Of a stretch of 64,000 nt of DNA, positions 5,746 through 28,653 are shown piece by piece. Each line of letters opens with the position of its first letter. The stretch's first letter is position 1. This DNA comes from an uncultured Gammaproteobacteria bacterium (GTDB lineage: Bacteria > Patescibacteriota > Patescibacteriia > UBA11705 > JABHMO01). The DNA lies in NCBI GenBank assembly GCA_964590105.1, contig CAZPYM010000005.1, positions 19,015-83,014 of the forward strand. Reading direction: 5' to 3'. The translations under genes and the position numbers were made by a program. The notes under the pieces were generated by a model, which had not been told where the DNA came from, ran no database searches, and worked only from the letters and a program-made list of their open reading frames with translations.

Positions 5746-6351
5746 ATGAAAAAGATTTATTTGCTGGCAAGTTTGATTCTAGTTTTTGGTTTAACCGCCT
5801 GCACAAGCGTTGCACCTGACCAGCCAAAAGTTGATTCGGAAAAAGTAAACATTGAAAAGGAAGTTAAAAAAGCAACAACCGAAGCCGATACAGTTGAAAA
5901 TGACGGCCTTGAACAAGTCGAAACGCCAGAGTACGATTTGACCGGCTGGCGTGATTTTGAATCAAAGGTTGTTCCGGTGAAGTTTAAGTATCACAAAAAT
6001 TGGTATTACGGCCAAATCAAAACTGAAGCTGATTTCAAGTTGTACCGTTTTGCCGCGACTGAGGATGAGCTATCTGCGGAATATATCAATCCGGAAATAG
6101 CTGAGTATATTGAATTGTATATGTCTGAGGTGAATGCGGTGTCAGACGAATTTTTGACTGAGAATTCAGATAACCCAACTTATAACGAGAAAAAACTTTC
6201 AAATGGGGCAACTTTGGTTTCGGTTGACCTTGGTGATTATAAAACGTATCGTTTAGTGAAAGATAATCAAGCATTTGAATTCAGAGCTTACCAAGAGGAA
6301 CATAATGAGATTTTAGATAAGATGATTTCGACATTAAAATTTGTAGAGTAG
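5746..6351 (+). CDS. Lipoprotein, hypothetical
   Basis: Signal peptide with lipobox LTAC (MKKIYLLASLILVFGLTAC). Confidence 0.6.
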   Translation: MKKIYLLASLILVFGLTACTSVAPDQPKVDSEKVNIEKEVKKATTEADTVENDGLEQVETPEYDLTGWRDFESKVVPVKFKYHKNWYYGQIKTEADFKLYRFAATEDELSAEYINPEIAEYIELYMSEVNAVSDEFLTENSDNPTYNEKKLSNGATLVSVDLGDYKTYRLVKDNQAFEFRAYQEEHNEILDKMISTLKFVE

Positions 6352-23590: not shown

Positions 23591-23747
23591 CGGCTAGAAA
23601 TACAAAAAACCGGACGCGACCGAGTCGTTGTCCGTTTTTTTTTGTTGCAAAGTGAGAAGAAATATTATCGCGTGCGGCGGGGTTTTATTGTTGTTGCGGC
23701 GGGATTCTGGAATCCCGCCTACACAAGAAGGATATTGCGGCGGGATT

Positions 23748-25790
23748 TTATTTGAGCTTTAACCGAAGCAGGCGGATCTCATCGCGCAGTACAGCGGCCA
23801 GTTCGAATTCCAGTTTATTGGCCGCCTGCTTCATTTGCATTTCCTTGTCTTTTATAATTATGTTAATCGGCCGATTGTCGCCTTGTAAATCCAGTTTGAG
23901 AATTGATTTTCTTGTTTCTTGATTTCTTGATTTTTTATTCTTCATAACAGTGAGTCCGAAGTCAGCCAAAATATTATTAATTGCCTTTTCAATTGTCTTC
24001 GGGGTAATGCCGTGTTTTTTGTTGTAGGCGATCTGAGTTTTTCGACGGCGATTGGTTTCCGTGAGCGCTCGCTTGATTGAATTGGTTATTTCATCGGCAT
24101 AAAGTATAACGCGACCATTGATATTTCTGGCGGCTCGGCCGATTGTTTGAATCAAGCTGGTATCGTTGCGCAAAAAGCCTTCTTTGTCAGCATCAAGGAT
24201 CGCCACCAGCGAGACTTCCGGGATATCCAATCCTTCGCGTAAGAGGTTTACGCCAACCAATACATCAATCTTGCCTTGCCGCAATTCAGTGATGATCTGA
24301 ATGCGTTCCAGCGTATTGATATCGCTGTGCAAATAGGAGACTTTGAAGCTCAGCTTTTTGAGATAATCAGTTAAATCTTCGGCAGTTCGCTTTGTTAAAG
24401 TTGTGACTAATGTTTTTTCCTTGATTTTTATTTGTTTGTGAATTTCAGAAATTAAATCCTCGACCTGTGTTTTGCCTAATTTAGTGTTATTTGTTCCAGC
24501 TTTGGCAGTGATTGCTTTAATTACAACGTCCGGGTCAACCAATCCTGTCGGTCGGACTATCTGTTCAACGATTTGTTGGCTTGATTTTAATTCATATTCA
24601 GCCGGCGTGGCAGAGGTGTAGATTACTGAACAAATTTTGTGTTCAAACTCGTCGGAAGTCAGTGGCCGATTGTCCCCGGCGCTCGGCAGGCGGAAGCCAT
24701 GTTCAATCAAAACACTTTTGCGTGCTTTGTCTCCATTGTACATGCCGCGGATTTGCGGCAGAGTGACATGAGATTCGTCAACCACCGTTAAAAATTTTTC
24801 AGAGCATTTTTGAAAATAATCAAGCAAAGTAAAGGGCGGCCGGCCCGGCGCGCGGCCGTCAAAGTGCCGTGAATAATTTTCTATGCCGGAGCAATAGCCA
24901 ATATTGGCAATCATTTCAAGGTCATATTTAACCCGGCGAGACAATCTCTCATGTTCTAATAATTTGCCTTGTTTTTTGAACTTCGCCAGCTGTTCTTTTA
25001 ATTCCTGCCGAATATTTTTGAAAGCGGTCTCTTTTGTTTGCTCTCCGATAACATAATGCTTGGCCGGAAAAAGCCAGATATCTTCAACTTGTTTCAGGGC
25101 GATGCGGGTGACAGGATCCAGTACTTCAATCAAATCAATCTTGTCGCTGATTTCAAAACGAATTATTTTTTCTTCATTGATCGGCATGATTTCAAACACT
25201 TGTCCGCGCATTCGAAAGTAACCGCGCTTTAGATCAGAATTAGTGCGGTTGAATTGCATTTCAATCAGCTGTTCCATCATCGCCCGGCGATCAAGTTTTT
25301 GATTTTTTTTCAGATGCAAAACAATGCGTTCATATTCAGCCGGCGAACCAAGGCCATAAATTGCAGAAACAGAAGCAACAATGATCACGTCCCGGCGGGT
25401 TAAAAGCGCTTGCGTACACGCGTGTCTTAGTCGGTCAATTTCTTCATTAATCTGCGCTTCTTTTTCTATATAAGTGTCAGAAGACGGTAAATATGCTTCC
25501 GGCTGATAATAATCATAGTAGCTGACAAAAAATTCTACCGCATTGTCCGGAAAAAACTGGCGGAATTCATTGCAAAGCTGAGCGGCCAGAGTTTTGTTGT
25601 GCGCTATTACCAGAGTGGGTAATTGAACTTTTTCAATCACATTGGCAATGGTAAATGTTTTTCCAGAGCCGGTTACGCCGAGTAGTGTTTGTTTGTCAAA
25701 GTCCTTGTCCAGTCCCTGAACAAGTTTTTTGATCGCTTGCGGCTGATCACCGGTCGGCTTGTAATCAGATTTTAATTTGAATCGGTTCAT
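23748..25790 (-). CDS. uvrB: Excinuclease ABC subunit B
   Basis: TGDQPQAI, GVTGSGKT and the C-terminal UVR domain ...LRDEIRLLRLKL. Confidence 0.9.
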   Translation of the reverse strand: MNRFKLKSDYKPTGDQPQAIKKLVQGLDKDFDKQTLLGVTGSGKTFTIANVIEKVQLPTLVIAHNKTLAAQLCNEFRQFFPDNAVEFFVSYYDYYQPEAYLPSSDTYIEKEAQINEEIDRLRHACTQALLTRRDVIIVASVSAIYGLGSPAEYERIVLHLKKNQKLDRRAMMEQLIEMQFNRTNSDLKRGYFRMRGQVFEIMPINEEKIIRFEISDKIDLIEVLDPVTRIALKQVEDIWLFPAKHYVIGEQTKETAFKNIRQELKEQLAKFKKQGKLLEHERLSRRVKYDLEMIANIGYCSGIENYSRHFDGRAPGRPPFTLLDYFQKCSEKFLTVVDESHVTLPQIRGMYNGDKARKSVLIEHGFRLPSAGDNRPLTSDEFEHKICSVIYTSATPAEYELKSSQQIVEQIVRPTGLVDPDVVIKAITAKAGTNNTKLGKTQVEDLISEIHKQIKIKEKTLVTTLTKRTAEDLTDYLKKLSFKVSYLHSDINTLERIQIITELRQGKIDVLVGVNLLREGLDIPEVSLVAILDADKEGFLRNDTSLIQTIGRAARNINGRVILYADEITNSIKRALTETNRRRKTQIAYNKKHGITPKTIEKAINNILADFGLTVMKNKKSRNQETRKSILKLDLQGDNRPINIIIKDKEMQMKQAANKLEFELAAVLRDEIRLLRLKLK

Positions 25791-27812: not shown

Positions 27813-27947
27813 AGTAGTATTTTTAAGTTAATTCTTTGTTTTATATTACCATAATCTTGATTATATTAAAACATTGTGCTAGAATAATTTTGTTGTTATA
27901 ATAATTTTACAATCTCGGTTTATCGGGGTTGATTCTGGGGCGGTATT

Positions 27948-28000
27948 AAAGTAGCAAACTGGAGTCCCGCCATTGGCGGGATAAATCTGCCGGCTCTAGC
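27948..28000 (+). repeat. Partial tRNA-Tyr-like repeat (D-arm to variable-arm homolog) immediately upstream of the GIY-YIG ORF
   Basis: aaagtagcaaactggagtcccgccattggcgggataaatctgccggctctagc parallels 28378..28430. Confidence 0.4.
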
Positions 28001-28016
28001 GATTGTTGAGGCGACT

Positions 28017-28265
28017 ATGTGTTTTGTCTATATATTGAAAAGTCAATTAAGAAATCGATATTATATTGGCTCTACATCTGATATCGGAAAAAGATTAAAA
28101 GAGCATAATTTGGGATTGGTTCGCTCAACAAAATATTATTGTCCATGGGAATTATTTGTACTTGAAGAGTATGAAACAGTAGAGCAAGCTCGAAAAAGGG
28201 AAAATCAGATTAAAAGTTATAAAGGGGGAGAAGCATTTAAGAGACTTGTGCAAATTAAAAAATAA
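28017..28265 (+). CDS. Small GIY-YIG nuclease-family protein
   Basis: FVYILKS...YYIGSTSDIGKRLKEHN at 82 aa. Confidence 0.75.
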   Translation: MCFVYILKSQLRNRYYIGSTSDIGKRLKEHNLGLVRSTKYYCPWELFVLEEYETVEQARKRENQIKSYKGGEAFKRLVQIKK

Positions 28266-28270
28266 TTTTT

Positions 28271-28356
28271 GGGTCGGTACCAAAGCAGTCAACTGGGGCA
28301 GACTGTAAATCTGCTGGCTTTAGCCTTCGTAGGTGCAAATCCTACCCGGCCCACCA
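28271..28356 (+). tRNA. tRNA-Tyr (anticodon GTA) with long variable arm and encoded CCA
   Basis: Acceptor gggtcgg/ccggccc. Anticodon arm gcaga-ctGTAaa-tctgc is identical to E. coli tRNA-Tyr. T arm gtagg-tgcaaat-cctac, then A-CCA. The D arm is atypical. Confidence 0.6.
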
Positions 28357-28377
28357 AAAAGTAAGGAAATAAAATAT

Positions 28378-28463
28378 CAAAGCAGTCAACTGGGGTCCCG
28401 CCATCGGCGGGATAAATTTGCTGGCTTTAGCCTTCGCAGGTGCAAATCCTGCCCGGCTCACCA
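28378..28463 (+). pseudogene. Degenerate tRNA-Tyr-like copy lacking the 5' acceptor strand and with the anticodon arm replaced by a cccgcc/ggcggg hairpin
   Basis: It shares the D-loop, variable arm, T arm and 3' ccggctcACCA with the tRNA at 28271..28356. Confidence 0.4.
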
Positions 28464-28653
28464 AAATTTAATTTGAAATAGGAAAGTCGCCTGAAGCGGA
28501 CTTTTTTATTGCCAAAATCAATTGTTTGTGATATCATCCTTACATAATAATAAACCACATATCTTTCTTGGCTATTTTTAGCTGAAAATTAGTGTGCCTG
28601 CTCGCCTGGCGAGTTCCACTGATTGGAAAGATAGAGGAAAAAAGGAACAATTT

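Follow-up and report, generated by a model that had tools for sequence, protein, structure and literature searches.

A small GIY-YIG nuclease gene recurs beside bacterial tRNA genes, together with partial tRNA copies and GC palindromes

We analyzed a 64,000-nucleotide (nt) stretch of contig CAZPYM010000005.1, referred to here as the window, in which a small GIY-YIG nuclease gene lies among copies of a tRNA-Tyr gene. Read along the forward strand, the locus consists of a 5' partial tRNA-Tyr (copy A, 27937 to 28001), a GIY-YIG open reading frame (ORF) of 82 amino acids (28017 to 28265), an intact tRNA-Tyr(GTA) (28271 to 28356), and a 5'-truncated tRNA-Tyr (copy C, 28378 to 28463). Related ORFs adjoin intact tRNA genes in other bacteria, and GC palindromes interrupt the partial tRNA copies around them. 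With moderate confidence, we interpret the locus as a single instance of a selfish cassette that is widespread, namely a minimal, free-standing, homing-endonuclease-like GIY-YIG element that lives on tRNA genes. An earlier note, made from the letters of this DNA, had suggested a mobile cassette or an insertion into a tRNA target with partial duplication. Recurrence of the arrangement, the orthology of copy C, and joins of the ORF and tRNA 5' half to different surroundings all support that suggestion, and from them we infer mobility.

The ORF product matched Pfam PF01541 over residues 1 to 67 (E=3.8e-16; 59.6 bits, cutoff 22.6) and comprises the catalytic domain only. The sequence GAGG lies 6 nt upstream of its ATG. 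The intact tRNA-Tyr, on the same strand, begins 5 nt past the ORF stop codon and belongs to class II, with a long variable arm. It was found by both ARAGORN and Rfam (RF00005; 49.1 bits, gathering score 29) and qualifies as a canonical tRNA. The ORF and the tRNA gene behind it are therefore as the earlier note had them.

Alignment and a blastn-short map defined the two partial copies, both on the forward strand. Copy A has the 5' acceptor strand GGGGCGG, U8A9 (TA), and the D arm, corresponding to about nt 1 to 28 of the 86-nt tRNA-Tyr gene by which all breakpoints are numbered here. A palindrome, TCCCGCC-ATT-GGCGGGA (27965 to 27981; strandless, like its counterpart in copy C), then replaces nt 29 to 35. 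It has a 7-bp stem and a 3-nt loop and folds at -14.6 kcal/mol (z=-3.5). After it come nt 36 to about 56, consisting of TAAATCTGC and the beginning of the variable arm, and copy A ends at about 28001, 16 nt ahead of the ORF ATG, without a T arm or a 3' strand. The earlier note had recognized the hairpin in this copy and placed the copy at 27948 to 28000; the true start is 27937, and the 5' acceptor strand is present. Copy C was described there as degenerate, with a T arm, a variable arm, and an ACCA end, without the 5' acceptor strand, and with a foreign hairpin, and the alignment bears this out. It lacks nt 1 to 10, is identical to the intact tRNA-Tyr at 18/18 positions in nt 11 to 28 and 92% identical in nt 36 to 86, and keeps the variable arm, the T arm (GCAGG/CCTGC), CCGGCTC, and ACCA. 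Its palindrome, TCCCGCC-ATC-GGCGGGA (28396 to 28412), replaces nt 29 to 35 (CAGACTG). In both copies, the right edge of the palindrome falls between anticodon bases G34 and U35 (nt 35|36). A search for further copies of the motif, which the note had called for, found GGRGTCCCGCCATYGGCGGGATAAAT exactly twice in the 64 kb (27961 to 27986 and 28392 to 28417), and 0/100 shuffled sequences matched.

Homologous ORFs had the same neighbors elsewhere. All 12 distinct ORFs examined (the window and, in our numbering of other loci, L001, L035, L036, L045, L052, L056, L058, L059, L062, L063, and L072) adjoin an intact tRNA gene on the same strand, at positions that range from an overlap of 18 to 38 nt to a distance of about 90 nt. 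The neighboring tRNA species are Tyr, Ser, Pro, and Thr, and the hosts include Patescibacteria, Methylomirabilis, Bacteroidota, and Endomicrobiales. Eight homologues were picked by protein similarity alone, and every one lies against a co-oriented tRNA gene. P0003 is fused to tRNA-Tyr, whose own 5' end supplies its final five codons and stop; P0010 and P0027 also adjoin tRNA-Tyr; P0020 lies 4 nt from tRNA-Ser(CGA); P0045 and P0061 adjoin tRNA-Ser(UGA) and tRNA-Ser(GGA), respectively; and P0073 and P0090 adjoin tRNA-Pro. Similar overlaps occur in L001, L058, and L072, where the ORF runs through the acceptor strand and its stop codon TAG is the conserved U8-A9-G10, and the ORFs of L045 and L036 end further inside the tRNA. 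Partial copies of the neighboring tRNA, with GC palindromes at their discontinuities, are present at all these loci except L047. Class II tRNAs make up 6/8 of the protein-seeded neighbors (Tyr, three; Ser, three), and palindrome loci without an ORF include tRNA-Leu; a preference of the element for class II tRNAs is possible.

The association was also approached from the palindrome. In a scan of species-representative genomes for the palindrome followed by TAAAT, the one match was a Candidatus Methylomirabilis metagenome-assembled genome (MAG) (L001). A metagenome scan returned 39 loci, whose six-frame ORFs were searched with a hidden Markov model built from homologues of the window ORF. This found a small GIY-YIG gene beside tRNA-Tyr in L024, L035, and L036 and beside tRNA-Thr/Tyr in L001. 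Of the other palindrome loci, at least 13 adjoin tRNA genes or fragments or are situated within RNase P RNA genes. At the protein-seeded loci, there were 20 palindromes in the 8.3 kb near ORFs versus 1 in 23.5 kb elsewhere (Poisson P ~1e-28). The palindrome consensus is (T/C)CCCGCC-N3-GGCGGG(A/G), and the arms covary (TCCCGCC/GGCGGGA, CCCCGCC/GGCGGGG, TGCCGCC/GGCGGCA, and GTCCCGC/GCGGGAC). TAAA was rejected as a part of the element; at the Tyr loci these letters belong to the native anticodon loop (U35-A38), and they are absent beside the palindromes of the protein-seeded loci. The hairpin resembles the repeats of type I-E CRISPR systems, but this lead was discarded, as there is no array and there are no cas genes. 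The palindrome of copy C occurs as the identical 17-nt sequence at the same tRNA-Tyr position in L001 and in L045/L024, despite only 36% identity between the window and L001 ORFs. The identical palindrome at an identical tRNA position across phyla, together with the 12/12 adjacency, excludes coincidence.

Breakpoints were shared between loci as well. tRNA-Tyr copies break at nt 28|36 or 35|36 in five independent loci (the window, L001, L036, L045, and L065), T loops break at TTCG|A, giving the junction GTTCG|palindrome, in four (L036, L052, L056, and L062), and breaks in the D loop or D arm occur in four lineages. All of these are loop-coding positions. On the tRNA strand, L001 has tRNA-Thr(GGU), an intact tRNA-Tyr, a spacer, and a pseudo-copy of its own tRNA-Tyr. 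This pseudo-copy lacks nt 1 to 10, the 17-nt palindrome replaces its nt 29 to 35, and in place of part of its T stem there is another palindrome, which shares the 13-nt core CCGCCATCGGCGG. Because the pseudo-copy is otherwise 100% identical to the intact tRNA-Tyr, the palindromes are a precise, recent replacement and not the product of slow decay. Some palindromes, as in L001, are nested within the loop of another.

Split older tRNA genes were seen at other loci. L052 has a 5' fragment, GGAGAGG, with palindromes, then the ORF, an intact tRNA-Ser, and finally GTTCG followed by two palindromes and an end that reads CCTCTCC-G-CCA. The outer fragments GGAGAGG and CCTCTCC are mutually complementary, the acceptor of the intact tRNA-Ser between them is different, and the fragments represent both halves of an older tRNA-Ser. 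In L062, an older tRNA-Ser is intact up to the T-loop TTCG and is followed by two palindromes and AATCCCAC; next come the ORF and a new, intact tRNA-Ser. L063 and L065 have an upstream tRNA-Tyr copy with palindromes exactly at G34|U35 (in L065, without a deletion), and their two or three downstream tandem units start exactly at U35 (nt 36), with a palindrome where the T arm would be. In the tandem units of L058 and L072, the ORF is fused to tRNA-Pro nt 1 to 10, a palindrome replaces the D arm, and the remaining tRNA follows. Whole-ORF tandem duplication was seen in L058, L072, and L001, and the number of tandem pseudo-copies differs between samples (L045 versus L050/L024 and L063 versus L065).

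Some of these loci appear to be hard to assemble. In L072, a DDE transposase fragment (909 to 1268) adjoins the tandem ORF/pseudo-tRNA-Pro units. In the NCBI MAG of P0010 (L063/L064), runs of N, which we read as assembly gaps, break the tandem tRNA-fragment arrays. The L055 contig starts (1 to 65) with an Illumina adapter, AATGATACGGCGACCACCGAGATCTACACTCTTTCCCTACACGACGCTCTTCCGATCT, that runs into the palindrome region ahead of the ORF, an assembly artifact at a break point.

Comparison with a related organism suggests where the copies in the window came from. In L047, the P0003 ORF and its fused, intact tRNA-Tyr are followed by a terminator and rpsB-tsf-PSP1, which is the synteny of the window. 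Copy C aligns at the position of the 3' half of the L047 tRNA-Tyr relative to the terminator and the rpsB leader. It also shares the T-stem allele GCAGG/CCTGC with the L047 tRNA, whereas the intact tRNA-Tyr of the window has GTAGG/CCTAC. Because position and allele agree, copy C is the remnant of the old resident tRNA-Tyr upstream of rpsB, with the ORF and the functional tRNA-Tyr placed just upstream of it (21 nt). The 5' acceptor strand of copy A, read from the sequence, pairs with the 3' strand of copy C at 6/7 positions, which is consistent with an origin of both copies from older resident copies. The T loop of the intact tRNA-Tyr, TGCAAAT, has G in place of the near-universal U at position 55. 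Such a G55 T loop (TGCAAAT or TGCGAAT) is a trait of the tRNA-Tyr of this Patescibacteria lineage and was also found in L045, L047, and L069 to L071.

Relatives without the ORF, which the earlier note had proposed to compare, were found in part. More distantly related loci either lack a tRNA upstream of rpsB or have a plain tRNA-Tyr without ORF and palindromes; in L069 to L071, about 70% related to the window, this plain tRNA-Tyr lies near rpsB. No strictly syntenic empty site was found in a close relative; the nearest RpsB relatives are about 70% identical, and in these the tRNA-Tyr is absent or on the opposite strand.

Two pairs of loci share the ORF and part of the tRNA and then diverge. 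L004 (1548 to 2029) is 100% identical to the window through the HAD gene, copy A, the ORF, and the 5' half of tRNA-Tyr. Its tRNA 3' half is canonical (GGTTCGAATCC, T loop TTCGAAT); beyond it come another terminator and a lipoprotein-like gene, and both copy C and rpsB are missing. L045 and L047 are related in the same way: in each pair, the ORF and tRNA 5' half are 100% identical, the 3' halves and downstream genes differ, and the switch occurs within or ahead of the variable arm. The L004 and L047 joins are either recent intra-tRNA recombinants or assembly chimeras at a shared repeat. In either case, an identical ORF with its tRNA 5' half is present in two contexts.

The catalytic residues of the protein are conserved. 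Among 120 homologues, Y5, Y16, G18, R26, H30, and E62 never vary, conservation of N31 and E50 is 98%, and the window protein has the complete GIY-YIG catalytic set (the GIY Tyr, Tyr-x-Gly, Arg, His/Asn, and Glu). Therefore, the nuclease is under selection. A C-terminal motif, IKSYKGGEAFKxL (IKSYKGGEAFKRL in the window ORF), is essentially invariant in the same set. The tails beyond it are highly variable, as would be expected if they are read out of whichever tRNA sequence comes next. Past GIY-YIG residues 1 to 67 there is only a 15-amino-acid conserved tail and no DNA-binding domain. The best Protein Data Bank matches were weak: UPF0213 BH0048 (1ZG2; E=0.001), SLX1 (E=0.017), 1YWL (E=0.29), and also the I-TevI catalytic domain. 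None of the curated NCBIfam models fits, and the group I intron endonuclease model TIGR01453 gave only 23 bits (cutoff 56). From these matches, the protein appears to be nearest to the Slx1/UPF0213-like branch, yet to form a distinct subfamily with its own C-terminal motif. The subfamily numbers 5,435 clusters (50% identity) at E≤1e-3 and 467 at E≤1e-10. Two called ORFs, P0241 (214 amino acids) and P0242 (205 amino acids), contain two GIY-YIG domains each, which is consistent with tandem duplication and read-through.

The activity and specificity of the nuclease, a route through a double-strand break and its repair, the installation and role of the palindromes, and present-day mobility are what we infer in the following scheme. 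A gene for a nuclease of about 80 amino acids would be wedged at the 5' or 3' end of a tRNA gene, co-oriented with it, and probably transcribed from the tRNA operon. Its product would break tRNA-gene DNA at conserved loop sites, at G34|U35 in tRNA-Tyr and after the T-loop TTCG or in the D loop in others. Recombinational repair against a cassette-bearing copy would then duplicate tRNA segments, selection would always retain one intact tRNA beside the ORF, and the broken pieces of the resident gene would persist as flanking partial copies. The GC palindromes exactly at the breakpoints are, in our view, cis elements, serving either as a plug against recutting or as the recognition structure of the nuclease. 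With partial copies on both sides, the ORF would have tRNA-homologous arms through which it could be copied into naive tRNA genes of the same kind. In the window, the resident tRNA-Tyr became copy C, and copy A would be a displaced 5' portion.

Several points weigh against this scheme. A catalytic domain of 80 amino acids with no recognizable DNA-binding domain does not account for site specificity. The intact tRNA beside the ORF retains the presumed target, and self-cleavage has to be avoided or tolerated. We know of no repair pathway that installs a constant 17-nt palindrome at a break. Phage and plasmid collections yielded no homologue of the family (tblastn, E≤1e-5), and a horizontal vehicle is undocumented. 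Palindromes with partial tRNA copies occur at loci where the fetched DNA contains no ORF (L014, L017, and L022; such loci include tRNA-Leu, -Pro, and -Ala), and the ORF may not be needed in cis. Finally, the L004 and L047 joins could be assembly chimeras, as noted above.

The ORF-less palindromes bear on a different reading, in which the palindrome itself, a unit of 17 to 20 nt like a repetitive extragenic palindromic (REP) sequence or a miniature inverted-repeat transposable element (MITE), is what moves. It would insert in the loops of stem-loops and the joints of RNA genes, and the GIY-YIG protein would be a trans-acting, structure-specific nuclease or "transposase," comparable to the REP-associated tyrosine transposases (RAYTs). 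Placement beside and duplication of tRNA genes would be secondary, with only insertions in redundant tRNA copies surviving. We lean against this reading, although it is possible. The palindrome is not specific to tRNA-Tyr, a notion ruled out by its many other contexts in the metagenome scan. Three full-length bacterial class A RNase P RNA genes (L015, 3077 to 3442; L021, 1013 to 1378; and L023, 4437 to 4817) have TCCCGCC-ATN-GGCGGGA-TAAA inserted in J5/7 after GAGGAAAGUCCG, as judged against the Rfam consensus, and a second similar hairpin slightly downstream. In L011 (about 5981 to 6001), in L033 (257 to 277), and just upstream of rpsB in L068 (about 1955 to 1985), the same or a near-identical hairpin separates a GAGGA Shine-Dalgarno-like box from the start codon. 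Folding would draw the box near the ATG, making a hairpin-bridged ribosome-binding site. Six soil metagenome contigs (L009, L018, L020, L025, L028, and L032) have the palindrome as the core of a longer, AT-rich palindrome, ttattttaaattttg-TCCCGCCATCGGCGGGA-TAAAttttaaat, which is found again on many contigs and has the look of a dispersed MITE-like or terminator-like repeat. The palindrome also occurs in AT-rich intergenic DNA. L030 (1 to 200) has repeats of about 118 nt in which GTAG-TCCCGCC-ATG-GGCGGGA-TAAA alternates with TCCCGCC-ATG-GGCGGG(A/C)-GGGTCGC; by its sequence, this organization resembles REP sequences or bacterial interspersed mosaic elements, with a GTAG head.

A mobile palindrome would also account for its occurrence in either orientation relative to the tRNA (L022 and L043 are opposite to the Tyr loci), for palindromes in the loops of other palindromes, and for the position of every breakpoint in a loop, and the structure-specific nuclease SLX1 is among the closest structural relatives of the protein. 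However, the 64 kb contain only two or three palindromes, all but one at tRNA-Tyr, whereas REP systems typically have hundreds. By itself, the reading also leaves unexplained the joining of the ORF to the tRNA 5' end in 12/12 cases and the tandem amplification of ORF and tRNA, and no mechanism is known by which a GIY-YIG enzyme pastes DNA. It overlaps the homing-like cassette that we favor rather than excluding it; it is compatible with most of the data, and the two may be the same system. Membership of the locus in the REP/RAYT or IS200/IS605 systems was rejected, as there is no HUH transposase partner, no consistent GTAG/CGTC tag, and low copy number.

In the window, the third palindrome match is of the long-loop type (CCCGCC...GGCGGG, 23714 to 23744), and the other two are the short-loop palindromes of copies A and C. 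It belongs to a cluster (23670 to 23750) made up of TGCGGCGGGATT-CTGG-AATCCCGCC, CCCGCC-19 nt-GGCGGG, and a repeated TGCGGCGGG(G/A)TTTTATT. The cluster lies between two convergent genes, just downstream of uvrB, with no detected tRNA adjoining it; it may be what remains of T-arm-like repeats or else act as a bidirectional terminator.

A doubtful proposal would unite the palindrome and the protein in a previously unrecognized mobile system. The small GIY-YIG protein would be a structure-specific nuclease that cuts the loops of stem-loop DNA (in tRNA genes, in RNase P RNA genes, and in the loop of the CCCGCC-N3-GGCGGG palindrome itself), installs or propagates the 17-nt palindrome, drives tRNA duplication, and is hard to lose through its fusion to the only intact copy of an essential tRNA. 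In a bolder version, the hairpin and the neighboring tRNA-derived segment might guide the nuclease.

The hairpins could instead act in RNA. The partial copies would then be transcribed as structured RNAs that serve as guides (a hairpin handle plus a tRNA-derived segment complementary to tRNA genes) or as processing or stability signals, such as RNase P/Z punctuation, exonuclease blocks, or translational regulation of a toxic nuclease mRNA within a tRNA operon. The ORF and tRNA are co-oriented in 12/12 cases, a promoter for the ORF alone is not evident, the ORF lies directly at the would-be RNase P site, and hairpins lie 4 to 36 nt upstream of start codons or right over stop codons. In Bacteroidota, pseudo-tRNAs keep the acceptor and T arms with the hairpin in place of the D arm, and ARAGORN calls one of them as a tRNA. 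Copy C also folds better than its shuffles (z=-2.3), but copy A does not (z=-1.0). Moreover, a tRNA-like fold is impossible for many partial copies, in which one acceptor strand is missing (copy C and the downstream copies of L063), and apart from the two tRNAs, Rfam 15 found no known RNA family in the region or in the whole window. A protein of 80 amino acids without an RNA-binding domain would make an unlikely RNA-guided enzyme. Because the palindrome occurs in RNase P RNA genes, 5' untranslated regions, and intergenic DNA, in either orientation and in contexts that do not look transcribed, an element that acts at the DNA level fits better. We therefore consider a role in RNA unlikely, and the suggestion in the earlier note of a tRNA-derived structured RNA that partners the nuclease gained no positive support.

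Ordinary tRNA-locus history is very improbable. Under it, attL/attR remnants of an integrase island at tRNA-Tyr, or unequal crossing-over as at E. coli tyrT, would have left the partial copies, the hairpins would be terminators, and the GIY-YIG gene would be nearby by chance. Partial tRNA copies around inserted DNA are indeed a classic integrase signature (PMC9897764), and each tandem unit of L045, L050, and L022 holds a terminator-like hairpin. However, the only ORF between the direct tRNA repeats of the window is the GIY-YIG gene, the "island" measures only about 330 bp (0.33 kb), and with no tyrosine or serine integrase gene in the insert, membership in an integrase-mediated island was rejected even though the direct repeats are there. 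The palindromes lie inside tRNA copies and have no T runs after them. An identical palindrome and position across phyla and the 12/12 adjacency are not coincidental, and a single transferred segment is disfavored by flanks that are specific to the tRNA of each host; recurrence effectively refutes this history. As to copies A and C being canonical tRNA genes, tRNA genes with a small intron, or halves of split tRNAs, we give the idea practically no credence. The flanking segments are tRNA-like, and a compensatory change is seen in the T stem of copy C, but descent from a different functional allele explains that pair. With nt 29 to 35 replaced, the 5' anticodon-stem strand is gone, and no excision could yield an anticodon stem or an anticodon. 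The 5' acceptor strand is missing from copy C, as are the T arm and 3' end from copy A, and neither ARAGORN nor Rfam, even at E≤10, finds a tRNA in either.

The surroundings of the locus are consistent with expression as a unit. A candidate sigma-70-like promoter (27857 to 27885, forward strand; TTGATT-17-TAGAAT with TG) lies upstream of copy A. It matches the consensus at 9/12 positions in a consensus scan, its sole basis; such sites number 10 in the region versus 4.0 expected, and this is the weakest part of our description. Past copy C, an imperfect hairpin with one bulged G and a T6 run, AAGTCGC-CTGAA-GCGGACTT (28484 to 28508, forward strand), was read from the sequence as a likely terminator; a strict consensus terminator scan did not call it. 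It precedes the rpsB promoter and leader, and L047 has a terminator at the same position. With the promoter-like site upstream and the hairpin and T run downstream, copy A, the ORF, tRNA-Tyr, and copy C look like a single transcription unit ahead of rpsB. The window has a base composition of 42% G+C, and the nearest sequences to its ribosomal protein S2 are from Patescibacteria (Falkowbacteria/Parcubacteria). In L068, from a relative, reverse transcriptase and bAvd genes (435 to 1850), which look like a diversity-generating retroelement, lie directly upstream of rpsB, where the window has its GIY-YIG/tRNA-Tyr unit.

Small stand-alone GIY-YIG proteins are among the commonest bacterial "nuclease family protein" annotations and have no assigned biology. 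If they are tRNA-targeting selfish elements, this would explain the abundance of the family, many partial or odd tRNA calls, which contaminate tRNA gene sets, and breaks in metagenome assemblies at tRNA loci. It would also provide a route to duplication and turnover of tRNA genes in streamlined genomes such as those of Patescibacteria and would extend the principle of phage SegB, a GIY-YIG homing endonuclease that amplifies tRNA genes, to cellular genomes. For the specificity of an 80-amino-acid catalytic domain, the constant breakpoint palindrome offers a concrete, testable handle.

SegB, a protein of about 220 amino acids with a DNA-binding region, is the closest known precedent. It is a free-standing GIY-YIG homing endonuclease of phages T4 and T6, encoded in a tRNA gene cluster (PMC2330249; PMC13096335). 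[quoted passage not shown] The family in the window shares the GIY-YIG catalytic domain and the location among tRNA genes. Unlike the much longer phage protein, its members are cellular, have about 80 amino acids and the catalytic domain only, score below the TIGR01453 threshold, and appear to be nearest to the Slx1/UPF0213-like branch, and their breakpoint GC palindromes and ORF-tRNA fusions have not been described for SegB.

The UPF0213/Slx1-like proteins (BH0048, 1ZG2; EF2693, 1YWL) are likewise stand-alone GIY-YIG proteins, of about 80 to 100 amino acids, with the same catalytic residues. E. coli YhbQ is another member of this group. Similarity to the window subfamily is weak (E=0.001), however, and the window subfamily is set apart by IKSYKGGEAFKxL. 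A 2006 survey of GIY-YIG proteins that defined the "Slx1 cluster" (Dunin-Horkawicz et al.; PMC1564403) reported no association with tRNA genes or palindromes. Full-text searches, in a body of literature that leaves out most subscription journals, turned up no account of an association of small cellular GIY-YIG genes with tRNA genes and palindromes.

Other known systems resemble the locus in single features. Integrase-mediated integration and CRISPR spacers are the known sources of partial tRNA genes (PMC9897764), and the anticodon loop and T loop are preferred tRNA sublocations of integrase islands (Williams 2002, as cited in PMC9897764). Islands and prophages thus share with the window locus the partial tRNA duplications (attL/attR) and the anticodon- and T-loop sites, but they measure 5 to 100 kb and encode an integrase, whereas the insert in the window is about 0.3 kb, has none, and has either the 5' or the 3' part of the tRNA duplicated; loci of the window type also have palindromes in place of the crossover region and tandem-amplified copies. 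REP sequences with their RAYTs, including the paired REPIN form, and IS200/IS605 (PMC3116915; PMC3733652) combine short GC palindromes, nested and in either orientation, with a single-copy nuclease or transposase gene. The window enzyme is GIY-YIG and not HUH Y1, a consistent GTAG/CGTC tag is missing, the copy number is very low, and the palindromes are embedded in tRNA-gene copies and are not extragenic. Group I introns with homing endonuclease genes in bacterial tRNA anticodon loops (PMC3984707) also link a nuclease gene to a tRNA gene, with the point of break or insertion in the anticodon loop; unlike these, the window locus has no ribozyme or splicing, and tRNA function is kept by gene duplication and not by intron removal. 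The locus is thus nearest in kind to the tRNA-associated GIY-YIG homing endonucleases, and its catalytic-domain-only enzyme, ORF-tRNA fusion, and loop-breakpoint palindromes could prove to be categorically new.

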